Positions 3,267-38,816 of a DNA stretch of 64,000 bases are shown piece after piece. Both the position numbers and the translations under genes were made by a program. Under the pieces are notes generated by a model. The model had not been told where the DNA came from. It saw only the letters and a program-made list of their open reading frames with translations, and did no database searches. Each line of letters begins with the position of its first letter. The stretch's first letter is position 1. The DNA is from Cirrosporium novae-zelandiae (Eukaryota), in the NCBI GenBank assembly GCA_026023565.1, contig JAPETS010000002.1, positions 1,364,001 to 1,428,000 on the forward strand, read 5' to 3'.

Positions 3267-6200
3267 ATGGCTGCTGCCAATGGCCTCGCCGCTGAATTGC
3301 ATCCGGATCATGGATCAAAAAATACTCTGAAACTAGAAAATGTAAGGTTTATTGCCTGGCCTGGTTTGTTTGTCCCACCACTGATTGTGTCTAGACCGAG
3401 AAACGAGATGCTCTCATCAAGATTGAGAAGAAATATCAGGCAAAATGGAGAGAAGACCGTATTTTCGAGGTCGATGCGCCTTCCAGCTCCGAGATACCTT
3501 ACGACACAATGCCCGCCGCCGAAATACGAAAAAAGCACCCCAAATTTTTTGGGACCATGGCATATCCTTATATGAATGGTTCTCTTCATGCCGGACATAG
3601 TTTTACAGCGAGTAAGGTGGAGTTCACCACTGGCTTTGCCAGAATGCAAGGGAAGAGGGCTCTTTTCCCTCTTGGATTCCATTGTACTGGTATGCCCATT
3701 AAGGCTTGTGCAGACAAGTTGGTAGAAGATGTTCAAAAGTTTGGCAAGAACTTTGAAAACTACAGCGAAGAGGAGGTTACCGAAACACCTGCTGCGGCTC
3801 CCACACAAGCTCAGACGAAAGAGGACATTACCAAATTCTCTGGAAAGAAGAGCAAGGCGGCTGCCAAAACGGTGAAGATGAAGTATCAATTCCAGATTAT
3901 GATGGCTCTAGGAATTCCAAAGGAAGAGATACACAAGTTCGCGGACGCTAGCCATTGGCTTGAATATTTCCCGCCCCTTTGCATTCAAGACCTCAATGAC
4001 TTTGGTGCCAGAATAGATTGGAGGAGACAGTTTGTTACTACCGATGCAAATCCTTATTATGACGCATTTGTTCGATGGCAAATGAACCGTCTCAAGGATC
4101 TAGGCAAGATTCTATACGGTAACAGATATACGATATACTCTCCAAAAGACGGCCAGCCGTGTATGGATCATGATAGAACAGAAGGCGAAGGAGTCGCACA
4201 AACAGAATATACAGCATTAAAACTTCAGGTCAAGGAGTGGGCGCCAAAGGCTGCGGAATTGATCAAGGGAAAGATTCCTGATTCAGCAAAGGTTTACTTT
4301 GTTCCTGCTACCCTTCGACCCGAGACCATGTATGGCCAGACGTGCTGTTTTGTCGGCCCAAAGATTATATATGGACTTTTCAAAGTGTCTGAAGAAGAGT
4401 ATTTCGTAGTAACCAAGCGTGCAGCATGGAACATGGCATTCCAAGGCCATTTCTTTGATAGCGAGCATTTCCCTCGTGATATCAGCGAACTACCAACTAT
4501 CGTGGAAATCCCAGGCTCTGCATTTATCGGTACTTTGGTTAATGCACCCCTTTCTGTCCATACCCAGGGGGTTAGAATTCTCCCTATGGAGACTGTCTTG
4601 GCAACAAAAGGTACCGGAGTGGTCACGTCGGTCCCATCCGATAGTCCGGATGATTATGCGACTGTCCTCGATCTTGCTAAAAAAGCAGATTACTATGGAA
4701 TTAAAAAAGAATGGGCTGAGCCTGAAGTGATCCCTATTATCGAAACCCCTTCCTATGGCAATCTAACCGCTCCCACTTTGGTAAAGCAAATGAAAATAAA
4801 TTCTCCGAAAGATGCCAATCAACTCGCCCAGGCAAAAGATCTTGCATATTCAGAGGGTTTCTACAAAGGAACAATGCTCATAGGAGAATTCAAAGGTAAG
4901 TCTGTTCAGGAAGCAAAAGATAAGGTGAGGGCAGCCCTTATCGCAAGCGGAGATGCGTTTCCTTTCGCCGATCCGAGTGGACGAGTCGTAAGCCGAAGTG
5001 GTGACGAATGCGTCGTTGCATACTTAGGCCAATGGTTCCTTAATTATGGTGAGAATGATTCTCAATGGCAAAAACAAGTACTCGATTACATCAACGACGG
5101 CCTTGAGACATTCAGTGCAGAAACTCTCCATGGCTTCCAAAAAAACATCGAATGGCTAAATCGATGGGCTTGTGCACGAACGTACGGGCTAGGTTCAAAA
5201 CTTCCATGGGATCAGAAATTCTTGGTTGAAAGTTTGAGCGACAGTACAATATACCAATCCTACTATACAATCGCTCATCTTCTGCATACAGATAGGTATG
5301 GTAAAACTGCAGGACCTCTGGGTGTGAAGCCCGAAAATATGATTGATGAAGTTTGGGACTACATCTACGCGAGGGCAGAACTAAGCGACGAATTGGTTAA
5401 GAAATCTGGCATCAGAAAGGAAGCCCTCCAGGCCATGAGAAGAGAATTTTCCTACTGGTATCCTCTGGATCTTCGAGTTTCTGGAAAGGATCTCATCCAA
5501 AACCATCTTACATTTTGGCTCTATGTCCATCTCGCTTTGTTCCCGAACGAATACTGGCCCAAGGGCGTTCGAGCTAACGGCCATCTGATGTTGAACGGTT
5601 CAAAGATGTCTAAAAGTACCGGTAATTTCCTTACACTTAGTCAAGCAGTCAAAAAGTATGGTGCAGACGCTACTCGGATAGCATTGGCTGATGCCGGAGA
5701 TGGTATTGAGGATGCAAATTTCGATGAAATGACGGCCAACAGCAGCATCCTTAGGCTTTTTACGCTTAAAGAATGGTGCGAAGAGACCATGAAGGATGAT
5801 AACCTTCGAACCGGTCCTGCAGATGTTTTCTGGGATAAACTATTTGATAACGAGATGAATAGTCTGGTTCACCAAGCTAGAGAGCATTATGAAGCGTACG
5901 TATATTTTTCCCCTTCTATGAATAAGGACTGATGAGACATTCAGGACGGATTATAAACTGGCTCTCAAGTCAGCCCTCTACGATTTCAATATTGCACGCG
6001 ATTTTTACCGGGAGGTCACTACAGCTGCGGGGATCGGCATGCATCGAGACATTATCCGACGGTTTATCGAATTGCAAGCTCTTATCGTTACCCCTGTCGC
6101 ACCACATTGGGCAGAGTATATTTGGCTCGAAGTTCTTCAAAAGGTGAGGAGACCCCCTTTTCTTGCCTCACTTGCGCTAATTACTGCAGTCTTCGACCAT

Positions 6201-6810
6201 TCAAAATGAACTTTACCCCAAAGTCCCAGCGGCAGATCCACATCTCACAGCGGCTCGTGAGTATGTCCGGTCAACTTCTTCAGGTATTACTTCGGCCGAG
6301 TCATTACAACAAAAAAGGAAGGCCAAAGGGAAAAGTGTCACCTATGATCCTAAACAACCAAAGAAGATTACTATTTTCGCTGCCGCTAATTACCCTACAT
6401 GGCAAGAGAAATATATCGATCTCGTTCGGGAAGCTTTTGATGGAACTTCATTGAATGATAAAGAACTAAATCCAAGGATTTCCAAGCTAGGGGAGATGAA
6501 GAAGGCCATGCCATTCGTCCAGAGTCTCAAGAAGAGGCTCTATGCGGGCGAGAAGCCTTCCGTTGTCTTTGATAGAAAACTTGCTTTTGACGAAGTAGCA
6601 ACGCTAAAAGAAATGGCCGCTGGTCTAAAGAGAACAACAGGCTGCAAGGCCATTGACATAATCTCTGTTGAGGAAGGGGGGAAAACAGGAACTGTGGTTT
6701 CGGGCGAAGGAGAAGGCCAGAGGAGAGAGGGTCTGCCTCAAATGGCAGAAGGTGCCTTACCTGGACAGCCAACCTATAACTTTGAAAATGTGGCAACGGA
6801 AAAGAACTAG
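3267..6810 (+). CDS. CDC60: Cytosolic leucyl-tRNA synthetase (3 introns)
   Basis: YPYMNGSLHAGH (HIGH-like), ATLRPET, GTGVVTSVPSDSPDD editing domain, KMSKS. Introns near 3342-3393, 5896-5945 and 6144-6190 join the ORF pieces. Confidence 0.97.
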
Positions 6811-7183
6811 ATGGCTATAAAAAATGTCGGATTATGACCATTGCTATGATAGAAAAGATGACATTATGAATGATTTTCAAACAGGAATGAATATTCCAAT
6901 ATTTGAACCATCTGGCTATTACCATATACCCGGTAGACCTGGAAACAAACCGAGCCAATAACCCTAGGTGTCCAGTTAAGCAGTCTCAATTACCAGTCGA
7001 GAATTCTGAGTCGTTTATTCGTATAGGCTTCCATAGCATGGCTTCTAACCTTGATTAGGCCCCCGAACTTGTATCCTAGATGCATTCCTGGGCCATACCC
7101 ATAGGTCTTTGAAGACCGTCCAATTTATGAATATCCATCATGTCTTGTAATATAATAAACTTTAAACAGATGATATCTGCACA

Positions 7184-7853
7184 TCATCGACCACTCCATA
7201 CCATGTCACCAGCCCTAAACCCTGCTCCAAATCCAGAACCACCTCGCCCTTCATTTACCGGTCTCTTGCTCACCCTCTCCTGAGCCCTAACCCCCTCAAC
7301 AATTCTATCCAAGGCAGTCTCTATCACCACTCCTCCAACAATCATCTCGCCGAGAGTAGCATGTAAAGTTTCAAAGTTAAATATCAAGTCTAATTCACAG
7401 ACATTGTCGAAAAGGCGATCTAGGGATTCGACGAATACTTGGATGAGGTCGAGAAGGGCAAGAGGGGACTCGGTCGATGTACTGATTACAATAAAGTAAA
7501 GGGTTGCGTAATGGCGGTATGTTATTAGGGAAGGAGTATCGCTATATAATTCGGTGGGGGATGATGGCTTTGATGATGAGGCTAGGAGAGGAGGTAGCCT
7601 GGGTGGGTAAATAATCATCCATTATGATGCTAGGAATCGAAGGAGTCGTACGGAAGAAAGTTACAGGCGGAGTTGGGTCTGTTGGAAACAAGGGTAAATA
7701 TCTCTGAGATGAGGCGTTGCTGGACGCTCGTGTCCTAGATGACTTTAGCTTTGTGATACTTGAGGTTGGGATCTGTAAGTATACTAGCTGGGTATAGAAC
7801 TTGGTCAGCCGTGGCTGGCCTGAGTTATTGAAGACGAGCACAGCACTGATCAT
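7184..7853 (-). CDS. APS3: AP-3 adaptor complex sigma subunit
   Basis: MISAVLVFNNSGQPRLTKFY; YRHYATLYF; ESPLALLDLIQVFVESLDRLFDNVCELDLIFNF; 2 introns. Confidence 0.92.
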
Positions 7854-8180
7854 TCTGGTTATTGCCGAGATGTTATCGAAGTAGCATGGTTAATATAGAA
7901 AGCGTTCTGTCTTTGGAGTTGGTGGGGCTGCTGGGTTTTGAGTTCAAGCTCTCTGGATTTCCATTTAAATCCCTGCAGACATGAGCGGGGTCCAAGCTTC
8001 CTGCCCACGCTGCCATCCAGGAACATTATATTTACAATCCAATTCAAACCCTCACATCATACCTTATCAGTTGATCTTTCAGAAGGCAAATAACCAGTTT
8101 ATCCAGTCTCAATTGATGCAATTAGGTGAAATAACTAAAGCAGCCTAATCTTTAGTTGAGCGTATCTCATTCTTCTCACC

Positions 8181-9140
8181 ATGCAGAGTCAACGAGCTCT
8201 CGTTCCCGCACTACAAGCTATCCGAAGCTCCCCGCGCTGTACTTCGTCACGGTTATTGAATCTATCCGCAAGGTTCAATCCTACGGTCAATGTAACCACT
8301 AGATGTCTATATTCGCATAATGTTTCATTCTTTAAGAGTACGCGATCGCTTTATACCTCTTCTTCGTCCTCCAAAGGCATATCCCCTGATGATCCTGATA
8401 AACATAATCATGTCGGCTTCCACGTCGCGGAACCCGCAGATATCGACATGGCATATTATCATGAACAAGCAGATGATTTTCTCGAGAGGTTAATATCTTG
8501 TCTCGAGGAGATACAAGAGGAGGATGAAGAGGTGGATGTGGAATATAGCGTAAGCAGCCACTTTCTTAGAACATGATGGTCTAAGACGTTCTTCTTTCTG
8601 CATATAACCCCCAAATGATTTCAATCCATCACATACGACCACAGGCTCAAGAGAATTGGGCATCCCGTCCGCTCTGCCATACACAACCTTGAGACCGATG
8701 GATTAGTAGTTGGGTCGGTGACGACCAGCGAATACCCATTGTTGTATGTTTTTTTTTTGTTTTGGGTTGTGAATTCGTGTTCATATTTATCGATTTTGCT
8801 TCTGCTGTGCTTAGTTTTACACGTTGATATATTTATATTAACTTCTCCATTACCTTACATCTCTCACTAATATCATGTTCCTGCTTAGGCTGGAGTTGCC
8901 ACTATAGTATTTCCACCAAATGGCACATACGTCCTGAATAAGCAGCCGCATAATAAGCAGATATGGCTGAGCTCACCGATATCAGGCCCGAAGCGATATG
9001 ACTGGGTAATGACGGGAGACTCGATGCAACAGAAAGAGGATTCGGAAGAATCTGTGGGTGACTGGATATATCTTAGAGATGGAAGCACGCTGAAGGACCT
9101 GCTGCGGAGAGAACTTGGCGTTGACGTGGAAGATATCTAG
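8181..9140 (+). CDS. YFH1: Frataxin (mitochondrial iron chaperone), 2 exons
   Basis: Exon 1 has a mitochondrial presequence and acidic helix ending DVEYS. Intron 8550-8888. Exon 2 reads [39 protein letters not shown]...[13 protein letters not shown] at 9138-9140. Confidence 0.95.
8631..8749 (+). rRNA. 5S rRNA gene (119 nt) inside the frataxin intron
   Basis: ACATACGACC...CCCGTCCGCTC...TTAGTAGTTGGGTCGGTGACGACCAGCGAAT...GTTGTATGT matches the Pezizomycotina 5S pattern. The ends pair (helix I), TATAA lies about 28 nt upstream, and a T-run follows immediately. Confidence 0.95.
8749..8758 (+). terminator. Pol III oligo-T terminator of the 5S gene
   Basis: Run of about 10 T directly after GTTGTATG. 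Confidence 0.85.
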
Positions 9141-10161
9141 CTTTCTTGGCCTAAGTAGCTTAGTGGTTACCGTTGATTGCAGTGGATACAGAATTATCAT
9201 GAGGTAGACCGGCTGTTCTACACAGTAATGTTCGGGGCTGTGCTGTACGTCTAATTAGGCTTATATGTATATTGTTATCCTCCATTCCTCGGTGTTTCGG
9301 ATTTGACGGGAGAATTATACAGTACTGTACCATCTTAAGATTAGGCAGAAGCTTTCTACATGAATAAACTATAAGGGACTCGGGGGCAATGATGTCTATA
9401 CTCTGGAGTCTTACAGAATGAAATAAAATAATCAAATTCTGACCCAGCGGACAATTCCAAACCTTCAAAGTGTCAAAGAGCTCAAGCTTGGAAGCTTGGA
9501 ATGCACGTGCAGGGGTTTGGCATTGGCGATGAGCCTTGGTAAGTTGCAAGTCGTCTACTAAACTCGACGTCAGCAGCGGCCCAACTTCATCGTTCTCCGT
9601 ACCTATTCCTAGCTTTTTCATCTACCTTGAGGTAAACTAAACACGTCTTTGAAAAAGGCGCAAATATAACCTCATCGAGACCCTGATTCATCTTGATTTC
9701 TCAACCCACTCATCATCGCCGCCGACCGCGGATTTACTCTTTGCTTGGTGCTTGGCCTGACACTTGAATACATTCCACTGCTAAGCCACGACCGCCAATC
9801 CCGGAGTACAGCGTCATTTCTATCAAATACACTTCCTTGTTCAACCCATTGCCATCAGAGCTTTCCTTTACTACCATTTCACCACCCATAGCTACTCAGA
9901 TCTCCTTTGCGACGAGAAATTTGACAATTACCGCATCGTGAATCAACAAAACCCCTCGAGCGAACTGTTCCATAGGTCGCATGTGCAAAAGGCCCCAGCG
10001 CGCCGATTGCAATCTCCCGGCACCCCGCATTCACTTGGAGTAAAGCCGCCAAAGGTATTAGGAGCGAGCTTCTCTACCCCTTCTACATCATTCGTTTGTC
10101 TTTTCGAGACAATTTCAAAAAACCCCCAAATCCAAGGCTCGTGTGAACGATATAAGTCATA

Positions 10162-12084
10162 ATGTCCAAAGTAGTAAGGAGCGTGAAAAATGTCACCAAA
10201 GGCTATTCTACAGTTCAGATCAAGGTTCGAAATGGTAGGCCTAATGCGATTCTGCTTTGCTGAAATAAATTAACCCGCCGTGTAGCTACCAGCAACGATG
10301 CCTGGGGACCAACTGGGACCGAGATGAGCGAGATAGCGCAACTCTCATTCAACAAGTATGCTCTTCCATGTACTAGTCAAGGCCTTACTGACTCGATATA
10401 GTTCCAATGATTTCCATGAGATTATGGACATGCTGGACAAGAGACTTAATGATAAGGGAAAGAACTGGCGTCATGTCCTGAAGTCATTGAAAGTGTTAGA
10501 TTATTGTCTCCACGAAGGATCAGAAATGGTTGTTACATGGGCTAGAAAGAACATCTACATTGTCAAGACCTTACGAGAGTTTCAATACATTGATGAGGAT
10601 GGTCGAGATGTTGGGCAAAATGGTTAGTAAAGGTTTCAACCGCCGCCTTGAGGGAGTTCTAGGCTAATTAAACGATAGTACGAGTCTCCGCGAAAGAACT
10701 TACGGCTTTGATTCAAGATGAAGATCGACTACGGAGTGAACGTACAGATAGAAGAGCTTGGAAGTCGCGAGTTACGGGCATCGATGGCATAGGCGACTAT
10801 GATGTTAACTCGCAACCCCGCCGAAAGCCAGAGAGACGTAAATACAACGAGGAAGATGATACCGAGTATCGACTAGCTATAGAGGCTAGTAAAAACCAAG
10901 CGGAGGAGGACAAAAGGAAGAGAGACCTGGAGGCTCGTGGCGGAGAAGACGATGATGATCTTGCCAAGGCAATCAAGTTAAGCAAGGAAGAGGAAGAATT
11001 GCGACGAAGAGAACTGGAAGAAAGCAATGCTTCATCTCTGTTTGACGACAACTTTACTCAACCACAACCCACGGGAAACAACCAAGGATATCAGCAGCAA
11101 CCAGCAGTGGATTGGTTTGGGAATCCTATCGACCAGCAACAACCACAGTCGACAGGCTATCTGAACAACCAATATTCTCAGCCAACAGGTTTCCAGACCC
11201 AGCCCACGGGCTTCCAAAATGGGTTTAATACCGGGTTCCAGACCCAGCCAACCGGCTTTGATCAATCCCAATTCCAGCAACAGCAGCAACCAAATTACCT
11301 TCAGGCACAGAATACTCTTCAACCGCAGAGCACTATTCAACCACAAACAACCGCCTTTGGCACCTACAATCCATATGCTCAGCAACCGAATGGTTTTGGC
11401 GATCAAGCCCAGCAACAGCAACCACAGCAGCCGCAGCAGGCACAATCTTTCCTTCAAGCTGGTTCTAACAACCCGTGGGCAACACCATCGACAGGCCAAC
11501 CTGATTCCCTCAAACCTGCTCCTACCGGTTCCAACAATCCCTTTGCAACTTTCAATCGTAACCAGTTCCAAACCCAGCAACCTGGTCCCCCCACACTCGC
11601 TTCGCTTCAAGAACAAAAAACGGCCACCCAATACACACCTTCCTCAAACAATCCTATTTTCAACTACCAGCCTCCACAGCAACAACAGATCCAGCAACAG
11701 CAGCCCCAGCAACAGCAGCCCCAGCAACAGCAGCTCCAGCAACAGCAACAGCAACAACAACAAAATCTCGATCCACATCATGCCCGTCTCAATGCTCTCC
11801 TGGCTTCCGGCGAAGGCCAAGACACATTTGGCAATGTGGGCGATCTCCGTATTCCTTCTCAGCACACCGCACCAGGTACATTTGTCAATTCAGCGGGCCA
11901 GGGACTCGGAAGACTACCAGCAAATGCCACAGGCACAAATCCATTCTTTGGACAAAGCTTTACGGGAATGGGTAGAGGAATGGTGCCTGCGCAGACGGGA
12001 CCTGTGGGTTACGGGGGAAACAGTAATCCTTTTGGACAGAGAACGGCGAGTCAGCCTGCTAGTGGGAGTTTGATTGATTTGTAG
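10162..12084 (+). CDS. Epsin (Ent1/Ent2-like): ENTH domain, 2 UIMs, NPF motifs, polyQ
   Basis: MSKVVRSVKNVTKGYS...ATSNDAWGPTG; KNWRHVLKSLKVLDY; UIMs LAIEASK and LAKAIKLSK; several NPF motifs; C-terminal clathrin box SLIDL; 3 introns. Confidence 0.95.
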
Positions 12085-23220: not shown

Positions 23221-25399
23221 CTAAGACAATACTAATAACGCTGCGCTCATGCTCATCATAACTCCTAGTAAAGATTTCAAGGACTCCAGTCTTACCCCGG
23301 AGCTCGTTGTCGTAGGCGACGGGGTTGCAGTCGCAATGTAAACCCCCGTCGGCATGCTCTTAGTAGTTGTAGCGGTCGCAGCCCCATTGGCAGTACCCGT
23401 CGCCGTCGAAGCAGTCATACTAGCTGGGACGGACCCCGGGGTGCCTGCTTGGGACGTCACGCTCGCTGCTGGAGTTTTCCAGTCGCTGGAATCGCTGTAC
23501 CAGACCCCATTGATCACGACCCCATCTCCATCTTGGACCTTTGAGATTTGCTCATCGGAGCATTTCGATTCCATGTCTCGGACCCAGCACGTGGGCGAGT
23601 TTTGGGATGGTGCTGAATTCGTCATTGTTGCGTTTGCGTCTCCGGTTGTGCCGTACTTGGTAAGGTTGACTGTGTCACCCATGGAGAGACCAGTTCCTAG
23701 GACGATGCGTGTGAAAAGGGTAAATACAGTTTCTGGCTGATATGCTGGTACCAGGTGGCCGGCCTCGTAGATGCGTGAAAATGAGAGATTTCCGTATTGG
23801 CGAACCATTCCACCCACGTATGTACTATTGACAACAATGTCAGCATATCCGGCTTTGTAGAAAGGACCGTATCCCTCTGCTTGAGCGGCAATAGAGAATG
23901 AAACAGCTTCACCCCCTAGCCAATTACAGATGAAATCTTTGTCGCCATATATCAGAGCAACGCGGACCCCCGAGTCGAGAAGAGAGGCTAGCTTTTCGAT
24001 TTGGTCCCCACGATCAAGGTCACCGGTAAGTTGAAAAGCTTCACTGACAGCCGTGCTAGATTGAGTGAAATTTAAAGGGGTACCAATAGCCGCCTGAACA
24101 TCTGCACGGTTAAGATATTCGAGGAATGTGCTTGGGGGAAATGGATCTGCAGCTTTTTGCGTGATATCATAGACATCCCGACCAGTGCTTTCATAAAATC
24201 CATACATATGCTCACTGCAATATGTCCATGCCTTGGAACAGATGGTGTTTACATTTGTTACACCCCCATAGTCATCGGGATCTGTCGTCGAAACCGACTC
24301 ACGGCAGGCCTGGATTCGTTGCTGACATCCACCCTGGCTGAGAAAATCATTTGCTGCAGTCTGTTGTTCCAAGAGGCTTATAGCTTGAATTCCATACGTA
24401 TTGTTGTACGCGAATTCCGGATAGTAAATCCCTTGCACTAGATCATCAATGCAACCTTGTACAATGCCCAGCGATGTCAACTTGATTCGCAAGTTGGTGC
24501 TATTTGAAAGAGTGCCACTCCTCAGGAGAGAATTCTGTTCCTCCCAGTAAGACGCAAAGGCAGGACCGTACACCCCTCCATAGCTTTCGGCGAAAAGATT
24601 AATACCAACAACCGAGCTGTTTGTACTGTTATTAACACCAGGATTATACTGCGGGAATGTCGCCAAAAAGCCTTGAAGCATATGCCAAATCGCATGCGCA
24701 GCAATGGTTGTTGTATTGGCGGTGGCATTAGCGTTCTGAGAACTAAAAGTCCCGTTGAGGAACGTATATTTTGGCTGTCCCGAAGGTAACGAAGTAGGAG
24801 GCTCCGTTATGTTATTTGATGACAAAAGGTCCAGTGAACCATTTATCGCAGTGTCATATGAAAATCCAACCTGATTAGGCTGATCAACGAAAAGAACATT
24901 CGAACTTCGGTCCCAACCCCAATCCCTTGGTTGGGTTCCTATTTTTCCTTTCGCAATCTCTACGGCTTCGCAAGGACCAACTTCCTGGAATAGCCCAACC
25001 ATGCTACTACTTCCAGGCCCGCCATTAAGATATACTGTCAGCGGCGCTGTTTCAGGGCTAGTCCTTGCTTCAATAAACCAAAAGAATGTGTTGATCGAAT
25101 AATTTTGTTGGATTGGAGCTAATATATATGGAGGCAAGTGGACATATCCTGTGTACTGTTTCTGGGTGGAAAAGACTGTTGTGCATGTGCCCACGGGTGG
25201 GGTTTTGTAGCTAATAGTTATATTTCCGTCCACAGGGGACTTTACTGTTTTAATATCGTCATCGGAAAGTGAGGGAGGATATTGGCTGGCCGCCGTGGCC
25301 AGTAAGAGGCATGTGCATAGAAACGATGAAATCCGAAAGAGCTACAGACAAAACATTAGTGTTGAGGTCTTTGGAAAATAAGAATCTTAAACCAACCAT
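23221..25399 (-). CDS. Secreted, probably GPI-anchored serine carboxypeptidase (family S10)
   Basis: LNGGPGSSS, DQPNQVGFSY, ESYGG (Ser), GDKDFICN (Asp), AGHLVP (His); S/T-rich tail with hydrophobic C-terminus. A signal peptide appears after splicing an ATG-only first exon (intron 25342-25396). Confidence 0.92.
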
Positions 25400-26773
25400 T
25401 ATGTTTTTACCTGAAGTAGAAAATGAATGATGGACCGACTCAAAGTTGGAGAAAATCAAATAAAGGGTACTGTCGTGTTTTGGTATGAAGGACTTCAGAA
25501 TTCATGTACTAGTAGGGACCGAATAGTGAGCCATTCGATGAAAGCCAAGTACCTTGGAGTTGTTCAAGGCATATTCGATTAGTCCAAGTCAGTCGTTCGT
25601 CACTCAAGTAAATGTTGTTTAGACTTGAGTGGGAAAGTATTTTTGGATACGAAGCTGAAACGAGGAAGCTCGGGAGGATGAGGCTGAGATCAACAACAAG
25701 GATGAGGGACAATGGTGATTCAAAGCGAGATTGCAAGGAGATTGAGAAGATAAAAAAGCGATTGATTCCCACTAAGCAGGTAAGCAAAATAATTATAAGT
25801 GAAGGGGAGAATTGAAACACATTGTTGGACAGACGACAAGGCTATGAGCATCGGTTGTGGTTGAAAGTCCGTAACGCAACACAATGCATCCCACCCGGCA
25901 TTGGCGTTGACAATTCCGTCGTGGTAATATTGGCCGAGGATGATACGAGAATATTACAAATTCCATGGTAATATTTAATTTCTTTTTTCTTTTTTTTTTT
26001 ACAAAACAACTTCAAGATGATATTTGGTGAGAGATATCTTCAGAAATAAATCAAGAGGATAGAAGTGAAGCTCTTTTTTAGCATGCCTTGCTGATAATCC
26101 GTGGATCCTCAAAATGTGGACCCACTTGATGGACTGAAAAATTGATAGGATGTTGAATGGTATTATCATCCGTGAAGAACTCTTCTCAAACTCAATTCTC
26201 TTCCGTACGTCCTTGATGGATCCGCATCAGAGTAGGTTTCCAGAAGAGGCATTTCTAACCCTTGACACAGCGTTTTCTATACAATTCAATTGGGTTTGGA
26301 AACGCTGCCCATCATAAGTGATTCTAGCTTGATCCGAAATTCCATGTACGCAATATTGAGGATTGCGACATTGTATGGAAAATGTGCTTCCTGGAAGGTA
26401 ATGCGGGTCATTCCGGCGACTTCTACCGAAAGTGCTTTCTTACATCTGAGGCTCCGAGGCTTTTTTTGCATTTTTGCATTTTCGCATGGGCATGATGGGG
26501 TACATATGGGCGTGCCTTGATAGTCTTTGGGCTTCCCTTGGGCCTAACTGATTTTCATGACCCTGCGCCAAGAATCTGGAGCTCTCACTACTTCCACTGC
26601 TTCCCCATGAAAAGTTAAGACTAACATGGTTAACTTTACCTCTTGATTACCTCCGATATTTTTAGTCTAAACCATCCTCCGCATTCGATTCATCTCCCAC
26701 CAACCCACACTTTCATTGATATTCTCTCAAGTATAGACATTCTCATATTACCTCTATATTACTACACTACATA

Positions 26774-28445
26774 ATGTTATCATCAACCACTCTCGCCCGC
26801 GCTGTGCGCCACACTGCCACTCGTAGTAACACCCTTCGTTTTGCTGCAACTATTAGATGCGGTTCAACATGGACCAATATACCTCAAGGACCACCTGTAA
26901 GTTGAATCTAAATGTCCAAATTTTTGTCACTAATCAATTGGCCTAGGATGTAAGTTTTGCCTCAATTGACAATCTATCAGATATGTTGACGGGATATTCA
27001 AATTCAGGCTATTCTTGGTGAGTTTCACATTTCCCATAGTTTTCATTGCTAATAAGATATAGGCATCACCGAGGCTTTCAAGGCAGACAGTTTTAATGAG
27101 AAGATCAATCTAGGTGTTGGTGCATATAGTATGCAAAATTCTTAATCATCCCACTTTTCATGTATGACTAGATGTGACTCATTTGGTTGTTCAACAGGAG
27201 ATGACCAGGGCAAACCATTTGTCCTTCCTTCCGTTCGTACTGCTGAAAAGAAGATTGTAGACTCCAAATTAGACAAGGAATATGCAGGGATTGTTGGCAT
27301 TCCGTCCTTCACCAAGGCCGCTGCTCTGTTAGCTTATGGTCTCGACTCGGCTCCTCTGAAAGAAGGTCGTATCGCCATCACACAATCGATTTCAGGAACT
27401 GGTGCCTTGAGGATAGGCGGCGCTTTTCTTGAACGGTTTTATCCTCATGGCAAGAAAATTTATCTACCAAATCCTAGTTGGGCAAATCATGCAGCTGTTT
27501 TCAAAGACTCTGGTTTAGAAGTGGAGAAGTATCGATATTACAACAAGGATACCATTGGACTGGACTTTGATGGAATGGTCGAAGATATTAAAGCGGCTCC
27601 AGAAGGTAGCATCATTGTTTTGCATGCCTGTGCTCACAACCCCACTGGAATTGACCCAACTGAGGCACAATGGCGCAAGATCAGTGACGCAGTCAAAGAG
27701 AAGGATCATTTTGCATTTTTCGACATGGCTTATCAAGGATTTGCCAGTGGCAACACCGATAAAGATGCCTTTGCTGTCCGGCATTTCATCAAGGAAGGAC
27801 ACAATATTGCCCTATGCCAGAGCTTCGCTAAGAACATGGTAGGTCTGTTGCTCATATGTAGTCTAATCTGGAAAACTCACATGCTACCAGGGTCTCTATG
27901 GAGAGCGTGTCGGAGCCTTCTCGCTTGTGTGTGCATCTGAGGAGGAAAAGAAGAGGGTGGATTCGCAAATCAAGATATTGATCCGACCTATCTACTCTAA
28001 CCCACCGATCCACGGGGCACGCATCGCCTCAGAGATCTTGAACGATCCAGCATTAAACAAGCAGTGGTTAGGCGAGGTCAAGGGCATGGCGGACAGAATC
28101 ATTGAGATGCGTGCTCTATTGAAGAAGAACCTTGAAGACCTTGGCAGCAAGCATGACTGGAGCCATATCACCAACCAAGTGAGTGATGAACTAGGACTTG
28201 GCTAGCACGGTGCTAATGGGATACAGATCGGCATGTTTGCCTACACGGGCCTCAAACCAGAACAAATGGACAAGCTTGCTAAGGAGGTGAGATTACCATG
28301 ATTACTCCCAATGGATCGGATCATCGCTAATAACGTCAATCAGCATTCGGTCTACGCGACTAAGGACGGTCGGATCTCAGTAGCAGGCATCACATCTGGA
28401 AACGTCAAAAGGTTGGCCGAATCAATCCACAAGGTCACCAGCTAG
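26774..28445 (+). CDS. Mitochondrial aspartate aminotransferase (multi-exon, with micro-exons)
   Basis: Presequence [65 protein letters not shown] (PLP lysine); TAG at 28443-28445. Confidence 0.96.
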
Positions 28446-28816
28446 AAAAAAGACAGGTCGCAGAGCACATGTATTTTAAGTAGTCGGCTACGATTACTAT
28501 GACATCATCCTAGACGCCCGGTTGCTTGCGAGACCTTGGTACAGTCATGATTTGGGTGTTACCGATAGACAAATGCATTAGTAGAGAAAGAAGTTCTTAA
28601 ACATCAACTTGGCCAGACGTATTCGTCGATTGGTTACATGCAGTGATAGTACCGAAGATTTAATACAACCCGGTCCTCTGGCCGACGGAGGGCACCTATG
28701 TAAGGTGCGGAGGTACGGTTGTCAAGATGTGGAGTAAAACGTAGGTACAGAGGGGTTCTAAATAGCATGGAACTCGCCGACATTGCGCTGAAGGTAGGAC
28801 GTTATAGAAATCATAG

Positions 28817-29160
28817 CTAGTCCCGAAGATCCAGGCGAACCAAGTAGTGCGGTAGCGGGCGCCTTGTATACGGTACCACGAAATGCCGGAACATGTGGAG
28901 TGGAAGATGGTGCATCTGTTTCCCCTCCACAAAGCGCCAGGTGGAACTGGGACCAGATGACCGATGCAACAGAAAAGGAAGCCGACTTAAAAAGTCCGAG
29001 GGAGTGGGTCTTGCTAATAATTTATATGCAGTGATCCCAGAGATGATTAGGTGATTTGTAGTTGCTGGGAAGTCCAGTAGAGATTTTTCGGGGGGGGGGG
29101 GAGAAGAGAGAAGAGAGAAGAGAGCAGAGAGGGAGTTTTGGATGCAACGATACAATGCAT
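28817..29160 (-). CDS. Candidate spliced small ORF (about 67 aa), function unknown
   Basis: ATGCATT, then a GTATCG...CTAAT...TAG intron (29014-29153), restores frame to give MHSRPTPSDFLSRLPF...MHHLPLHMFRHFVVPYTRRPLPHYLVRLDLRD*. Confidence 0.35.
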
Positions 29161-30497
29161 AGTCTATTTGCAGGGACCTGCTGAGTTAGTGACAGAGATG
29201 AGAGCAGAAGAACAAGGATCAAGGTGTAGTTGAGTAGAGGAACAAGTGAATGGTGAGTGGTGAATGAGTGGGTCGGAAAGTCGGGGAGACGGGGGAGGGG
29301 GAAATACGACGGGGAAGTGAATTTGGCGGGTCACGGTCTGTTGGTCTCTTTGGTTCTCTTTTCGGCTCTCGGATGCTCGATTGGTCATTGATTCTTCGTT
29401 TTCTTGCGTTTCAATTTCTCTTCAAAGATCCTCGGACGCGATATTTTAGCATTGCGCAGCTTGACATCATTGGTTTTGGGTCCAGACTCTTTTCTCTCTC
29501 TCTCTCTTTCTCTTTTTTTTTCTTTCCAATTTCTCTTTGCTTCCCTCCGTCATTATTAGACTTATTTAATATTCTTTCAAGCAGCACATCTCTCCTCCGT
29601 TCTAACTACTTCTCATTTAATTCCCTTATCCCACTCCAATCAAATCTAGATTGAATTTATACCAGCACCCCCTCCCATTTAATTAGCTTAAAAAACATGT
29701 TATTTCCGTTTTAGGTACTTTCAGATGACATTTTCAGCATTGAGGGGATTTCCATATGCGGGATGAGGAGGAGGCGGAGGAGATGAAGGAGAAAGAAGTG
29801 ACTCTAGGTGACGCCAGGGGCTCAATCTTCAAACAGTGATTGCCATACCAAGAGTGCAGCTCGCAGCGGTTAGGCTTAAGTATCTTTGGCTCGGACATGG
29901 AATTGGTGGATGCTGTTATGCCATGACGCCTTGGGTTGGAATGGTCCAGACCTTTTTTTTTTCTTTCTTCTTATGGAATTTGGAATTCTGGATAACAGCC
30001 TGTTTCGGTAATTTGGAAGGGGATTTTAGTGGATGGCTGTTTTGTTAGAGAGGGAGTCAAATTGGGAAAATTCCAAGTTTTTTCTTTTTTTTCTTTCTTT
30101 CTTTTCATGTCCTTTTGGAAAGAATGCAAAACCATTCCCCACACTTGTTCAGTCGACGTAAACTGGATTCTGCCAACTCCGGGGGTACTTTTGTTGGACT
30201 GTTTTTCAGAATGGTCCAGAAGGCGGCCAGTGCCTAATTAGTTGGCGAAAAAAAAGGACACGGACTCTTTTTTTTTTTCCTTTCGCTTTTTTTCCCACAA
30301 CTGTGACGTGGGATGACGGATGCTTTTTTAATTAGAGAGATAACCATCATTCAGCTTCGGTGCTTGTTTTTTGGGTCGGATTAATTCTAGAAAATTGTAG
30401 TAAAGAAGTTGATGAGAGGATAATTAAATACCGAGAGAGAAAAACCATGCAAAAGATGAAAAAGATGACAATTAATTTATTAATTATTAGCGATGAG

Positions 30498-30568
30498 TGC
30501 CATCAGTGCCATGCATGCCATCAGTGCCATCAGTGCCATCAGTGCCATCAGTGCCATCAGTGCCATCT
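30498..30568. repeat. Minisatellite (TGCCATCAG) about x8
   Basis: Visible tandem 9-mer with one variant unit. Confidence 0.92.
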
Positions 30569-31815
30569 GCAGCAAGAAGAGGGGTCCAAAGCGATGATAT
30601 CATAATAGCCTGGTGTGAAAGTCAACTTGTTCATGCAACGGTCCTCTCGGCGCTCCACTGGAAAGATTGGAAATGAAAAGAAAGGGGAATAATAATAATA
30701 ATAATAATAATACAATACATACATACATGCCTACCTTCTTAAATAACTTCTTTTTCATATTTAGTAGTCTAGTCTAAATAATTATTAGATAGATGCTTGG
30801 AGCCGTAGCTGGTTTCCCTGGTTCGATTGCTAAGATTGCTAGGGTACCTAGGGTACCTAGGTCAAAAAGGACCACAGTAAAGGGAAATGGAAAGCTTCAA
30901 GTATCAAGTATCCCTATCAGGTATCCCTATCAGTCCATGACTATCTTTTAGTTGCCGGTGTTTAGCTCACTCCACCACCACCATCCATTTCAAATCTCCA
31001 AAAGTATTCCAAAAGTACTCCAAGCACCGGTCACCAGTTGCCGCACAAATTCTTGACCTGCATCTTCTGCAAATCCTCCAAGTCCTATCATCCTACCATC
31101 CTACCAGCATATCTGTGTCTCGTGTGTCCCCTCGTCTATCGCATCCTCCGAAAAGAGTAGAACAAATCTCATTTCTTTCCTAAAACCTCCCTGTTTGACC
31201 CTGCACCAAAGAAAAAAAAAAAAAAAGGAAGAAAAAAGACCCCACCTCAAATCGAAAAAAAAAAAAAAAATACTTGACCCCACCACCAGCTGGCTGTGTT
31301 GTCGGTGTCTTTAAGCCCCTCGAAAACCTCCAGCCTCATCACCTCCATCTAGATAGCCTTTCATATTCAATTCCGAACCACTAAAACCTCTTCAAATCTG
31401 GTCTGAATTCCGATAAACTCCCCTTGTAAGCTATTCACCTTGTCCACCACCACCGCCAACAATTCAACTTGGGTTTTAAGGAATTCAAGAGTAAGTACAT
31501 GGCCTTGTCTTTGCATGTCAACTAAGAAAGCCTTTGTATTGAGTTCTTAGATCACCTCTGAGATCACTGGTTCGGAGATTCACTGATGAATTTCTTCATC
31601 TTCAGGTCCTGTTCCCTTTGATACATCTTGCGGAACGGATCTTATTCGGCATATCCCACTCTTATTACGCGCCATTGTGATATTGAATACTTCACAACCT
31701 TCTTTGCCGTGCGATCGAATTAGCGCCAAATAATAACAACTTTTATCCACATCCACAGGCGTTTCGTTTACGTCAAGCCTTCATCCTGGATTATCCGGTC
31801 CAAATCCTATCAAAC

Positions 31816-32403
31816 ATGTCGCACGTCCAGAGGCTTGAAACTGTTGATGACCCAGTATGCCAGGAACATGCGATAATTGGAGGTTGACTGGAGGCTGACT
31901 TTCTGACAGAGTGAGGAAGGGTCCGTTGGGCTTCCAGATTTCGGAGATAATATAGAGCTCTCAACTTTTGAGCAGGTGTTAGAAATGGATGACGGGGATG
32001 AACCTGGAGAGGAATCTTTCAGTCACAGCATTGTCTATGGCTTTTTTCAACAGGCTGAAAACACATTCAAAGAGATTGAAACAAATCTGTAAGAGGACCA
32101 GGTTTACATGTCTATGCGATCTGCTAACATGGCAGTGACAACAGTGAGAGAGGAGATTTGCAAAAGCTTTCATCTCTTGGTCACTTTCTGAAAGGTTCCT
32201 CGGCGACACTTGGCCTTGTCAAGGTCAAAGATGGTTGCGAGCGAATCCAACATCTGGGTGCTCGCCGTGAAGATTCTGGAGCTGCGCCAACGCTAGATGA
32301 CACAACAGCACTCAGCCGCATCCGTGGCACATTGACGGAAGTAAAAGCGTCATTCAAAGAAGTCGAGAAGCTCCTGCGCCGCTATTATGGAGAGAGCGTG
32401 TGA
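31816..32403 (+). CDS. YPD1: Histidine phosphotransfer (HPt) protein
   Basis: TFEQVLEMDD...FSHSIVYGFFQQAENTF|...LSSLGHFLKGSSATLGLVKVKDGCERIQHLG; 2 coding introns and a likely 5'UTR intron at 31491-31605. Confidence 0.95.
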
Positions 32404-33534
32404 TCAAGGGGGGTGTGTAAGCAGGTAAGATGGCAGGCGCCTGTTCCTCTGCAGCTGTCCGTGGATTAACTGGGGCTGATTTTTCTTTAATATGCTGCAG
32501 TTCGTTCTCGGCTTTTGGACATTGTCGGCTTGACTAGAGGCGATAAAATGCTTTTTCGGACTGCATATCCGTTTTTACGTTACTGAAAATCAAACTTATG
32601 AGGGGGGGGCCCTAGGATACGTGCATAAATAATGCATCGATATGCATCCAATGATTTGGGTGCACACACATGACTTTTGAAGCCTTTAACCTACAAAACA
32701 GGCCCTTAAGACACGCCCTATGGAATGAACCATAATGAATCAATTATTTTTTGAATACCCTAGCGTGTAGATTGATTTTATATTTTTTGGATTCATTTAT
32801 TTTCGAGAACCTGGTGCTGTTTAACCAAAAAACTTTTTGCTATGGGTCCGTTGAAGGCTTGAGCAAACACATATTATGGCCTATCAACTACGTCCCTATC
32901 TACCTAGGTACCTACAGCAAGGAAACCCTGTTATAACATCCAAAGTTTTAACATCGATGGTTTTTCCAAGGGCAGCCAACCTAGCACTTTTTGAAACTCC
33001 CAAACTTGCCAACCTCTTTCTCTCCTATCCAGTGAGGGACACGACACCTTTGTACATAGGTACTTTTTCTTCAGGTCTTTGTTAGGCAATATCCAATTAA
33101 TGTTCCCCACAGTTCTGGTTTCTAATAACTGGGAAGTTGGGATCTTGCTGCTAGATAGCTGGTTGATTGCTTGCTTGCTTGTTGTGGATGGTCGAGAACT
33201 AAAGCTGAAACAGAAACCAGAAGAATGATGCATCATTGCCGGTTACCTACCTAGGTACATGTACCTCTTTACGTTCAGGCTCGAGTTCGGCTTATCTAAC
33301 CATTGAAGAAACGATTCCAGGGATCCAGGAAAACCACGATCTTTAAACTGGCCTTACCTACCCTTCCCGAGCGCTTATATCTATCTATACCCATATCCCA
33401 TATCTGCAGATGCTGCCATCTCGTTTGGCTACAATAGGTCTGATATCTTACCCAAGGAGATGAGACTTTGATATTAACCAAAAGCATGGTAGGATCAGGT
33501 GGGATATATCTACAGATATATTTAATGTTACTAT

Positions 33535-34320
33535 AGGCTCCTGAAGACCAAGGTTGTTCTATTCACATCCACCCTCATCTTCACCACCATAACCATTTCT
33601 TATCCCTCCCCCTGGTCACCAATCCATAATCCAAAGCAACTCAACAGCGCCAACTAAAACCCAACCGACGAAACCCAGTGGCCACATCCATCCATATCCA
33701 TCTATATCTCCACCAGTTCAGAATCCAATGCAACTCAACTCAACTCAGCTCAGCTCAACTCAACTCAGCTCAGCTCAACTCAACTATAGACCCCTGAAGA
33801 CTAAGACTATTTGAATTATTTTCATCCACTCACCCATCCATCCACACCCTCACCACCATGGCCATTTCTCATCCCTCCTCCTGGTTACCAATCTACAATC
33901 CAACTTAACTCAACTCCACAACCACACCAACTCAACCGACCAAATCCAGTACTCACGTCTACCTACTCGGTCGGCCTAGTCAGCCCAATCTAACCCTTTC
34001 ACTAACCTAGTCTCCAAGTCACATCAACTCATAAACAGGCACCCAAGTCGTTCGCGCAGTATCTTTATTTATATCTCCAGACCAGGCCCAACCCAAACCG
34101 AGTACTCACGTCTACCTCCCTAGGAGACCCAGTCCACTCCTTTCACTAACCTACCCAGGTAGTCTCCCAAGTCTTTAACTTAACTCACCACAACCCAACT
34201 CAACAGCCCCAACCTAAATCCAACTGACAAAACCCAGTGCTCACATCCTCCTAATCGGTCAGCCCAGTCCACCCCTTTCACTACCCTAGCCTCCCAGGTC
34301 TTTAACTTGACCCAATCCAA
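33535..34320. repeat. Nested degenerate tandem duplications, C/A-rich
   Basis: Unit A (CCTGAAGAC.AAG...CACCACCAT..CCATTTCT.ATCCCTCC.CCTGGT.ACCAATC) at about 33540 and 33790. Unit B (AGT.CTCAC.TC...CC.AGTCCAC.CCTTTCACTA.CCTA...CAAGTC) at about 33945, 34098 and 34232. Confidence 0.75.
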
Positions 34321-35704
34321 CCACATCGACCACACTAACCCCATCAACCCCTTGACACCCACCCAAGCTATTCCTACAATATCCATCAAGCTATACCAAC
34401 CTCAACCCCAACATCTACACACCTACAAGACGCCAACTTAGCTCAAGGGCAGTCCTTATTCAAAACACACTCCCCAACATATCAAGGCATGCGTTCAATT
34501 ATTTAACTTTTGCATCTAGCATCAAGGGGAGGGGGATGTGTGGGTATGTGGATGTGTAGGAAGTGTGGGAATTATTTATTTATTACTCTAGTTGGTTGGT
34601 TTGTTAGGTTCATGGTACTTATATAGTTATATAGTTATATGGGTATCGTTATCTTATCACATCGCTCTGCTTGTATTTAGGGGGCAGTTTTTAGGGTAAG
34701 TATCTTTACTTTAGTTTATTTGGACCTCGAGATTGGTTACGAGGTTCTTGCTTGTGAGGAATGTGGATTCTTGTGTCTAGGTTTAAGTTCAAGTGTTGGT
34801 TTTGGTTTATCTCGTTATATACCCATTGAATCGGGTCGGCGATGTGATATAATATTGGCGAATGGGGAACAGAGAATCGAGTGTTAGGGTGCCAAAGGGT
34901 GCCAGAGAGGGATGTTCATAATTCCCTCATCCCTAATTTTTTCTTATCTAACTGTCTTTTTGCTTCTTCTTTGTTCTCAAATTCTTTTTTTAGGGGGGGG
35001 TAAGGGGTAGATATGTACGGATGGATGGATGGGTTATGGCTTATATATATGGGATATGAAATATCTAAAAGAAAGAAAATCTAAGTGGATAGGGAGTGGG
35101 GAAGGGAAGGGAAGCGAAGGGAGAGGTTAGGTGTATATCCTATCTTATATCCCACAACCCAGAACACCGATACCGACCAGACGAGTTGTATATAGCCAGC
35201 CAATTCACTAATTAACTAATCAGCGCTCTTAGGAAATCAAACCAAACCAAACCTAGTATTTTACTATCTATAGACTATATAGCATCGTCGCGATACATTT
35301 ACTGTACTGTACTGTACTGTACTGTATATTACCCAAACCAACCTACTTACCTACCTCTTTTCTTGCAGTTACTACACAAAGTATATATACCCTACTCTCT
35401 ATATCCTCTTATTTATTCTACCCCCAATCCCAATTCCAAACAAACAAACAAACCCCTAATCTAATCTCTCTGTCCAAGTCCAAATCCAAGTCCAAATCCA
35501 TATAAAAGTCTCAAAAACAAGAAAACAAGAAAATGAAAATTTTTATTCTATTATTATTCATTATATTGTTATTGCTGAAGGCCTTGAAAGCTTGAAAGCT
35601 TGAAAGCGTGTAATTAGCTCTTTACTTACTATTTGTATCTACCTACCCAAGTTACCTTGTACTTATATACTTGTACATAACCACTTACTTGCATATCCAC
35701 TCCT

Positions 35705-37790
35705 AACCCCAACCGATTCACCACCAACCTTCCCTTCCCTTCCCAGCCAAACTAGGACTAAGCAGCCCAATTTATTCACCCCCCCTACCTTCCTCAGCAC
35801 TGCGTTAGAGTCTACACAAGTATATATCCTATATCCTACATCCCATATACCCACATACCCACAAATAAATGAATAAATAAATAAAATCCCCTCAATCTAA
35901 TCCAATCCAATCCAATCTAACCCTCCCTCCTATCAAAGAAACAATAAAGAAAAAGAATACTCGAGATACGGAGATGAGGGAATGGGATAACTTAACTCTT
36001 GCTTCTGACAGTAAATATGTATATATGTTATATAAGTGGGGATTAGTTTATAGCTAATTAGGGATTTGTATGTATATATGTATGTATGTATGGATATAAA
36101 AAAAGTCAAAGTTAAAGTTAATGTGTGTAAAATCAATTTTTTTCTTTTAAATTATAGTATAGTATAGTATAGTATAGTATAGTTATATTTGTACTGTATG
36201 TTTTTTTTTTTTTTTTCGTGATTTAGAATTATGTATATAAATAATAACCAGCCACTTCTCCTTCCCTTAACTAAAATACTTGAAATAACTTTACTACTTT
36301 ACTACGACTACTAAATTTTTTTTAGAGAGTAGTCCACTTATACAATATATATATATATCTTACTCTACTTCTCACATCACATCCCTCCACATACTACATA
36401 CTATCATTTTATCCCCCCCCCCCCGGACTGCTCTTTTTCCGAATTCCTTCCTAATAAATTTCGTTTCGTTTTGTTGTTGTTTAGGTAAGTAGATAGGTAG
36501 GTGTGTGTATGTGTGTGGGTATGTGTGGAGGAAGTATCATAAAGAGTAGAGGAGGTGTTGTTGGGGGTTGTGTGTGTGTGTGGGGGGGGGGGGGGGGGGG
36601 GGGGGGAGTAAGGAGTAAGTAGGAATAAAGGGGCATGGATAACGGGTACAGTGGTTTATATATACATAACATACCTAGGTAGATATATATAAGAGACCGC
36701 TTAGACCAGACTACTTGGTTAAATTTTATTTTGGCTCCTACTACTCTACTCTATTCTACTCTACTAAACTAAACTAAAACTAAAAAAAAAAAAAAAAACC
36801 TTTCGTTCTTGACTTGACTTGGACTTGATTTGACGTCATTAGATTCGTAAAGTGTAAATGTTTAGTTTAGTCTATATAATTAGGGAAGGATAAGGGTGGT
36901 TGCTATTTATTTGAACCATGGATCATGAAGAAGGTAATCACCATGTAGAAAGAAATAATTATTTTATTCCTTCCTCATCCTTCGTCGTTCTTCAATAGGA
37001 GGAGGGTCCGATCTGGATCTTGGAAATTTTTTTTGGGAGAGAGAGGGGCTGATTGAGGCGTAGTAGATATAGATATGTGGGATATGGATATATACTTTGT
37101 TCAGTACTGTAGTAGGTGGGTGGGTATAATAAGTTTGGTTGGTTAGAAAAGGAGGGCTGGTGGTGAGTCGGTTGGTTGTGTTTATGTGAAATATATATAA
37201 AAAAAAAGGTCTGAAAACGATATATGAATAATAAAATGAATTATCATTATAAAAAAGAAAAAAAGAGGGCGGGGGGGGAAGATTAGCAGGGGTTGATTTT
37301 TATATATACTATTCTACCTAATATCATCATATAGTATATAGAAAGAAGCTAGTTATTTATTTATTTATTCCTCATCTTCGTATTTTTTTTATCGTTATTC
37401 GTCGTTCGTCAGTAGGAGGTTAGGTTAGACTAACGTTTATGAGTTTCATTAGGGGATTTTATTTGGAGGGGGTTAGGGTTGGTTGTGGGTAGATGGATAT
37501 AGATGGAGATAGGGGGGACTATGTATATAGGTATGCTCTTATGAAGGACTGTAGGAGGTGGATGTAAGCTGGTTGGGAAGGGAGGGCTGGTGGTGAATCG
37601 GTTGGTTGGTTGTATGTATTTAAATCATGAATTATGAAGGAAATATATACTGTGGTAGAAAATTAGCACAGATTAATTTTGACTTTTATACATACTATAC
37701 TAGCTAACATCACCATGTAGAAGCAGTTATTTGTTTATTCATTCATTCATTCCTCATCTTTTCACCCTCTTCGTCATTTTTCGGTACCCA
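35705..37790. repeat. About 250-300 bp local repeat family: one inverted copy (35705-36005), two direct copies (36935-37180, 37325-37615) and a partial copy overlapping the gene end at 37705-37780
   Basis: Shared blocks CACCATGTAGAA, TTCCTCATC, TCGTCGTTC..TAGGAGG and GGAGGGCTGGTGGTGA.TCGGTTGGTTG. Reverse complements (CAACCGATTCACCACCA, AAATAAAATCCCCT, ATACG.AGATGAGG) lie at 35709-35985. Confidence 0.75.
36582..36606 (+). repeat. Poly-G tract (about 25 G), G-quadruplex-capable
   Basis: Visible directly. A 12-C tract lies at 36413-36424. Confidence 0.9.
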
Positions 37791-38662: not shown

Positions 38663-38816
38663 GGCTAAACCCTCGTGCCCCTCTGTGGGGTTCTATTTAA
38701 AGTAGATCATGCATCCCCGACAGCCGCAGAGCCGCAAGTCAGTTACTACAGGTAGATCATCGACTCGATTGTTTGTAAGATTTTAACACGGTCAGGTATT
38801 TAGTTTAGCGTAGTTG

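Follow-up and report, generated by a model that had tools for sequence, protein, structure and literature searches.

A full-length 5S rRNA gene nested in sense orientation within the frataxin intron of Cirrosporium novae-zelandiae

Introduction

In filamentous ascomycetes such as Neurospora crassa, Aspergillus and Fusarium, the 5S ribosomal RNA (rRNA) genes occur as scattered, heterogeneous copies whose likeness to one another is confined to the transcribed region. In N. crassa these genes carry a TATA-like box near position -28/-29 (PMC6204057; title of Tyler 1987), and the dispersed genes end in a T-run terminator. The families of filamentous fungi have been reported to comprise 50-200 copies, many of them pseudogenes (PMC5555474, citing Rooney and Ward 2005). 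The present analysis concerns a stretch of 64,000 nucleotides (nt) from Cirrosporium novae-zelandiae, a fungus of the class Xylobotryomycetes (PMC6712537), corresponding to positions 1,364,001 to 1,428,000 of the forward strand of contig JAPETS010000002.1. This whole stretch is hereafter called the window, and all coordinates refer to it. A complete 5S rRNA gene was found there within the only intron of the gene encoding the mitochondrial chaperone frataxin. This copy shares with the dispersed ascomycete genes the scattered and heterogeneous nature of its family, the TATA-like box and the T-run, but, unlike them, it is nested in the spliceosomal intron of a gene that codes for a protein. No description of a fungal 5S gene in a spliceosomal intron was found in the literature searched, most subscription journals being outside its reach.

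Small RNA polymerase III (Pol III) transcription units with internal promoters are known from the introns of genes transcribed by RNA polymerase II (Pol II), the closest examples being the intronic transfer RNA (tRNA) genes of Caenorhabditis elegans (PMC4999229) and a MIR element in the first intron of Polr3e (PMC5358760). The MIR element blocks Pol II, is oriented antisense to its host gene and is conserved across mammals, whereas the frataxin 5S gene runs in the sense direction and has no counterpart in the homologous introns examined at other loci. The nested unit is, moreover, a 5S gene rather than a tRNA gene, as in C. elegans, or a short interspersed nuclear element (SINE), as in Polr3e. 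A second point of comparison is provided by intronic RNA structures that influence splicing or depend on it, such as the zipper stems of long yeast introns, which bring the 5' splice site and the branch point together, and the autoregulatory introns of ribosomal-protein genes (PMC12350175; 10.1101/2025.03.14.643126). A stem predicted in the frataxin intron would link the region of the 5' splice site to a stretch just past the branch site, but it contains splice-site nucleotides. Intronic tRNA-like sequences (PMC7722341, PMC6152437) are likewise structured RNAs within introns, the corresponding element here being a folded rRNA domain. The arrangement is thus a combination of two well-known things, namely the dispersed 5S genes of fungi and the nesting of Pol III genes in Pol II introns.

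Identity of the 5S rRNA gene and of its host intron

The 5S rRNA gene is 119 nt long and occupies positions 8631-8749 of the plus strand, as defined by a full-model match to the Rfam family RF00001 together with a single-sequence fold. The cmscan match (8631-8750, plus strand) reached 65.8 bits (E 1.3e-11) over model positions 1-120 of 120, which is 27.8 bits above the gathering threshold of 38 bits, and it was the sole match to any Rfam family in the whole 64-kb window. No second RNA gene near or in the intron was detected in a permissive Rfam scan of positions 7600-9800 (E<=1), and no tRNA genes were found by ARAGORN across the 64-kb window. In a manual count on the cmscan alignment, 29 of the 34 model pairs were standard, as suits the three-way junction formed by helices I-V; the five non-standard ones comprised A.A and two U.C pairs in helix III, a U.C pair at the base of helix IV and an A.C pair in helix V. 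Helices I, II, IV and V, which the initial annotation had listed as preserved, were all reproduced by the single-sequence fold. The energy of this fold was ordinary (z -1.72, with 12 of 200 shuffled sequences equally stable), so that it is the covariance-model score that constitutes the real evidence for 5S identity. The upper-case positions of the Rfam consensus were mostly matched, the consensus UAAG being represented by CAAC; within this CAAC, positions 8684 and 8687 are T and A, respectively, in most other 5S copies of the genome. These results confirm that a full-length, sense-oriented 5S gene sits within the frataxin intron, as the initial annotation had proposed.

The host gene lies on the same plus strand. 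Its first exon (8181-8549) comprises 123 codons and encodes the presequence and the first helix of the protein, as indicated by the gene model, by alignment with the PDB structure 6fco and by the N-terminal part of the database protein P0001. The sole intron (8550-8888, plus strand) is 339 nt long, is in phase 0 and runs from GTAAGC to TTAG. The second exon (8889-9140) contains 83 codons (8889-9137) followed by the stop codon TAG (9138-9140). With the ATG at 8181 as start codon, 8549|8889 was the sole junction to unite GT...AG ends with an open reading frame, and the protein so encoded has 206 amino acids. Exon 2 matched the Pfam family PF01491 (Frataxin_Cyay) with 82.9 bits, against a threshold of 21.3, and residues 42-119 of 6fco, the frataxin-like protein of Chaetomium thermophilum, with an E value of 1.3e-28. 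Residues 86-122 of exon 1 correspond to residues 3-39 of 6fco and residue 2 of exon 2 to its residue 42; since residues 39 and 42 bracket the junction, nothing was lost or added there. In addition, the joined model is identical to P0001, which is named 'MAG: Mitochondrial chaperone Frataxin [Cirrosporium novae-zelandiae]', and the junction (...EYS|AGV...) is ungapped in an alignment of 23 fungal frataxins, consisting of the window protein and 22 others. The gene that houses the 5S unit is a normal fungal frataxin gene, undamaged and with its intron at the usual site. A distance of 81 nt separates the 5' splice site from the start of the 5S gene, and one of 139 nt separates its end from the 3' splice site.

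The great length of the intron had been noticed initially by comparison with other introns in the window, most of which were put at 50-60 nt. A strict heuristic for such introns, used as a rough check, yielded candidates of 49-124 nt together with some longer, doubtful ones, and a looser heuristic (186 candidates) was too noisy to be used. The better yardstick is provided by the homologous introns of other frataxin genes, which measure 51-153 nt. As regards a transposon-like origin of the intron content, a blastn search of the intron against the 64-kb window returned matches to its T-run only.

Homologous frataxin introns

Metagenome contigs were scanned with the frataxin alignment, which resulted in 80 frataxin loci, every one of them with a tblastn match to P0001. 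Their best-segment identity ranged from 37 to 72%, and no close relative was among them. An intron at the identical codon boundary was present in 62 of the 80 loci. For 49 loci a phase-0 GT-AG intron was recognised at this boundary by motif search; ten further loci, one of them with a GC-AG intron, were resolved by relaxed rules, and three by aligning a related exon 1, with introns of about 71, 120 and 124 nt. The other loci were contiguous across the junction (17 of 80) or cut off upstream of it (one, L077). The 49 loci found by motif search represent 40 distinct intron sequences, and the median length was 71 nt for 48 of these 49 introns, L066 being left out.

None of the 62 sized introns, which include none from a close relative, holds a 5S gene or could hold one. 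In agreement with this, a blastn search of the 5S gene against all 80 loci (197,447 nt) gave nothing at E<=1e-3, and cmscan detected no Rfam family in the 20 loci whose introns were the longest or were unresolved when it was run. The window intron is therefore 2.2 times as long as the longest homologous intron (153 nt), and its surplus is accounted for by the inserted 5S gene together with some 90-170 nt of additional sequence. Since the introns at the same site in 62 loci are short and free of 5S sequence, the intron is considered to be old and the 5S gene to be a lineage-specific insertion that enlarged it. A comparison of frataxin introns across relatives had been suggested in the initial annotation as a search for a conserved insertion: the intron site is indeed conserved, while the insertion itself was found in none of the loci, which include no close relative.

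Two observations were made on the homologous loci themselves. In L039 (about 968-1021), the frataxin intron at the conserved site is apparently of the GC-AG type, with a GCAAGT donor and a length of 54 nt. The 17 uninterrupted loci (L002-L006, L008, L012, L017, L019, L021, L023, L025-L027, L034, L045 and L054) are short contigs of about 1.0-2.6 kb, and they are most simply explained as spliced transcripts of metatranscriptomes rather than as genes without introns.

The 5S rRNA family of the genome

The contigs of three public sequencing runs were aligned to positions 7900-9400 of the window at 80% likeness. In run X1, the probable source of the window, the unique flanks of the 5S gene had a contig depth of 347-359, and the summed contig depth over 8614-8766 amounted to 23,800-39,956; this sum is not a copy count, but its great excess over the flanks points to a 5S family with numerous members. 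Loose ends that continue in many different ways began at 8630/8631 and at 8758-8764, meaning that the likeness between copies stops at these points and that the shared unit consists of the transcribed region and the T-run. Several other 5S copies were found as variants at single-copy depth, with 6-9 differences per 57-70 nt. Heterogeneity is thus the rule among the 5S copies here, and the dispersed, heterogeneous family expected by the initial annotation is borne out by the many variant copies in X1. X2 and X3, two runs of the same study on other organisms, showed matches at this likeness to the 5S gene and a short conserved coding piece only, and no frataxin intron of those organisms was recovered.

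The intronic copy could be distinguished within this family. An 80-nt X1 contig that matches positions 8651-8730 without any difference had a depth of 369, which, set against the 347-359 of the flanks, indicates that the intronic variant occurs once in the genome. The differences from most of the other 5S depth were gathered in the segment 8684-8702 (plus strand), at positions 8684, 8687, 8698, 8700 and 8702, which are positions 54, 57, 68, 70 and 72 of the 5S gene. In terms of X1 depth, differing over aligned, the alternative letters accounted for 11,600/11,969 at 8684 (C>T), 8,778/10,693 at 8687 (C>A), 7,682/8,051 both at 8698 (A>G) and at 8700 (G>T), and 7,275/8,051 at 8702 (A>G). Outside this segment no difference was present at as much as 10% of the X1 aligned depth, and the intronic gene is identical to the family majority at about 100 of its 119 positions. 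Because the aligned depth in the middle stretch was several-fold below that of both sides, further and more divergent 5S variants were probably left unaligned. The initial description of the copy as a sequence variant consequently applies to its middle part (positions 54-72), and not to helices I and II, whose sequence is shared with most other 5S copies here.

The flanks of the unit were also compared, with positions 8596-8630 and 8759-8775 of the window set against the loose ends of the other 5S copies. As judged by eye, the 30-nt continuations of these copies have three short motifs in common with the intronic one: near -30 a motif resembling ATAAA, immediately ahead of +1 one resembling TCCATC and, beyond the T-run, one resembling TTTTGGGT. 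The promoter-proximal and downstream sequence of the intronic copy may accordingly be typical of the family.

Pol III signals and the likely activity of the intronic copy

A TATAA motif was located by motif search at 8603-8607 (plus strand), covering positions -28 to -24 relative to the 5S start, and a run of ten T residues of the Pol III terminator type at 8749-8758 (plus strand), with its first T being the last base of the 5S gene. Both signals are where the initial annotation had placed them. Given that TATAA occurs with a frequency of 0.875/kb on the plus strand of the window, the chance of finding it within a few bases of -28 is roughly 1 in 150. As for the internal region, the Xenopus 5S promoter comprises box A at positions 50-64 and an intermediate element at 67-72 (PMC6204057). 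The equivalent of box C (positions 80-97, corresponding to 8710-8727) had no alternative letter in X1. Since the TATA-like box and the T10 run have been kept, along with an internal region that departs from most copies at five positions, the intronic gene could probably still be transcribed by Pol III, and the balance tips somewhat towards this copy being transcribed.

Splice signals and the predicted terminal stem

Motif search located a single sequence resembling a branch site in the intron, CTAAT at 8867-8871 (plus strand), with 18 nt between it and the 3' splice site. In a repeat search, complementary stretches were revealed at the two intron ends, which are predicted to form a stem of 17 base pairs (bp) made of segments of 7 and 10 bp with an 11-nt bulge. 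The 5' arm (8551-8578, plus strand) consists of 8551-8557 and 8569-8578, and the 3' arm (8871-8887, plus strand) begins at the last base of the branch-site-like sequence. When the whole intron was folded, this stem appeared in both the minimum free energy and the centroid structures, with the 5S domain folding separately inside it, and the energy of the fold as a whole was unremarkable (z -1.13).

The duplex of the two arms was calculated separately at -18.5 kcal/mol, a value matched by one of 2000 shuffles in which the splice-site bases were preserved. Among 462 natural 26-mers taken from positions 6000-12000, it was matched by a single one, which by its position is probably the true partner. 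In none of the 40 distinct homologous introns is the duplex as strong, the best value among them being -16.9 and the median -5.95. Such a stem may loop out the 5S domain and keep splicing efficient. A 9-nt inverted repeat near the intron ends was read as a stem and not as the terminal repeats of an inserted element, since in the latter case the original intron would have measured no more than about 27 nt.

Origin of the arrangement and alternative explanations

The likely explanation of these observations is that the pairing of 5S and frataxin is a tolerated accident of the birth-and-death dispersal of 5S genes and no regulatory device. In this filamentous ascomycete, one full-length member of a large 5S family with scattered and heterogeneous copies would have been inserted, in sense orientation, into the ancient phase-0 intron of the frataxin gene, which thereby grew to 339 nt, where 51-153 nt are usual. 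The inserted copy would retain what a Pol III unit needs to work on its own, namely the TATA-like box upstream at -28, an internal region and the T10 terminator. Frataxin expression would continue because both splice sites and the single branch site were spared by the insertion, and the predicted stem between the intron ends may contribute by looping out the 5S domain. If introns make up a few percent of the genome, as is typical of such fungi, and dozens of 5S copies are spread over contigs that amount to about 36 million letters, one or a few intronic copies are to be expected by chance.

Several points weigh against this explanation or against parts of it. Both Pol III transcription of this copy and splicing of the intron are predictions from sequence signals. 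Run X1 possibly represents the window's own assembly data and is hence not independent, and, as the intron comparison included no close relative, the insertion may be of any age and may be conserved among near relatives, a pattern that would speak for a function. The terminal stem was spotted after the fact and is treated as a lead; as it contains splice-site nucleotides, it could hinder splicing instead of favouring it. With regard to the 5S gene itself, all five of its special positions fall within the equivalents of the Xenopus box A and intermediate element. At position 54 the copy lacks a U that the Rfam consensus gives in upper case, and at position 72 what was G-C in helix V has become A.C. 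Given these changes, the intronic 5S may be a weak or dead gene.

The last of these points leads to the alternative that survives best, according to which the copy is a full-length but dead or near-dead pseudogene that binds neither TFIIIA nor Pol III and is carried as a passive passenger of the intron. It is favoured by the packing of five substitutions relative to most copies into the 19 nt of positions 54-72, by the C in place of the conserved U of the consensus UAAG and by the A.C mismatch, as well as by the single occurrence of the variant in the genome and by the proportion of 18-83% pseudogenes reported for 5S genes of filamentous fungi (PMC5555474). However, the pseudogenes of that report were recognised mainly by truncation, and the intronic copy is not truncated; it is complete, has largely standard pairing, lies well above the Rfam threshold and, outside 8684-8702, shows no difference from at least 90% of the X1 aligned depth. 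In addition, the TATA-like box and the T10 run have been kept, and two of the five changes, G68A and U70G, maintain or add pairing in the model structure. A dead copy is thus regarded as possible but rather doubtful.

A second alternative, put forward in the initial annotation, is that frataxin is under the control of the nested gene, acting either as an active Pol III unit or as a 5S fold within the pre-mRNA, through a roadblock, slowed splicing or binding of uL18 or TFIIIA, which would tie ribosome production to iron-sulfur (Fe-S) cluster assembly. The sense orientation does place the 5S sequence in every frataxin pre-mRNA, and an unusually strong predicted stem connects the intron ends. Precedents exist as well: nested Pol III units are able to impede Pol II, as in the case of the MIR in Polr3e (PMC5358760); the intronic tRNA genes of C. 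elegans are influenced by the host promoter, with some of the pairings being conserved (PMC4999229); and yeast ribosomal proteins control splicing via intron structures (10.1101/2025.03.14.643126, PMC13232506). On the other hand, the same sources provide arguments in the opposite direction, since a MIR placed in sense orientation had no measurable effect on a reporter and very few nested Pol III units caused Pol II to accumulate in human cells (PMC5358760), and the 44% of C. elegans tRNA genes that are intronic are no more than chance would give (PMC4999229). Moreover, the 5S gene is missing from all 62 homologous introns, none of which comes from a close relative, and chance alone would be expected to place one of dozens of dispersed copies in an intron. 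The proposed coupling between 5S and frataxin therefore found no support, and it is considered very unlikely.

A related and still less probable possibility is that free uL18/uL5 or TFIIIA sets the level of splicing by binding the 5S fold in combination with the end stem, or that the variant 5S rRNA is released from the spliced intron in the manner of intronic small nucleolar RNAs. If the 5S fold were used in splicing, frataxin output, and hence the supply of Fe-S clusters, would follow the assembly state of the 5S ribonucleoprotein, and if the 5S were released from the intron, a Pol II-dependent source of variant 5S rRNA would exist.

With regard to the mode of insertion, it was considered whether the element could be a 5S-derived SINE or a retro-copied 5S transcript instead of a gene duplicate, given that the likeness to other copies stops near the transcribed region. 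Nevertheless, no body or tail common to other copies extends beyond the T-run, the continuations past 8758-8764 being different, no A-rich tail is present, and no target-site duplication flanks the element in a search for direct repeats (seed 6, minimum length 8). Pol III transcripts keep only a few U residues, and the run of ten T is longer than that. The upstream and downstream motifs apparently shared with other copies, as compared by eye, would likewise be lacking in a copy of the transcript, and such an origin is accordingly held to be remote. Least probable of all is an assembly artefact, in which a repeated 5S sequence was misplaced or a false join was made: the 5S is a high-copy repeat and the genome is labelled as a metagenome-assembled genome (MAG) in the database, but the flanks are two exons of one gene in the correct order, strand and phase with splice signals, which a false join would not yield, and separately built contigs of X1, the reads of which are possibly the window's own, cross the left border from flank to 5S (7900-8654) and the right border from 5S to flank (8707-9400), with a unique middle piece (8651-8730) at single-copy depth.

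If the 5S gene is only a passenger, the locus would demonstrate that an entire Pol III gene can be accommodated in a short intron of a fungus, with the length of the intron quadrupled and an essential host gene kept, and that the birth-and-death dispersal of 5S genes extends into genes. It also offers a single-copy 5S variant tagged by its own sequence at positions 54-72, the expression of which could be traced specifically, something rarely possible in multi-copy 5S families. If, instead, the 5S were to affect the splicing or transcription of frataxin, this would be a new kind of link from ribosome assembly to mitochondrial iron-sulfur metabolism; nothing observed here points in that direction.

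The frataxin protein and the neighbouring genes

At two positions the window protein deviates from the aligned fungal frataxins. Residues A127 (in ...GVATIV...) and H144 (in ...NKQPHNKQ...) are found where at least 90% of the 23 aligned sequences have L and P, respectively, and the remaining conserved core of the protein is intact.

The neighbours of the frataxin gene are housekeeping genes, with a leucyl-tRNA synthetase gene located upstream and a divergently oriented gene for a clathrin-adaptor sigma subunit at 7184-7889 on the minus strand. Seven fungal database proteins (P0009, P0049, P0057, P0074, P0075, P0085 and P0101) contain the frataxin Pfam domain and go under unrelated names such as 'Sigma-adaptin 3A' and 'arabinogalactan endo-1,4-beta-galactosidase'. 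These names look like propagated annotation errors, and the divergent clathrin-adaptor sigma neighbour may explain how 'Sigma-adaptin 3A' came to be attached to frataxin proteins.

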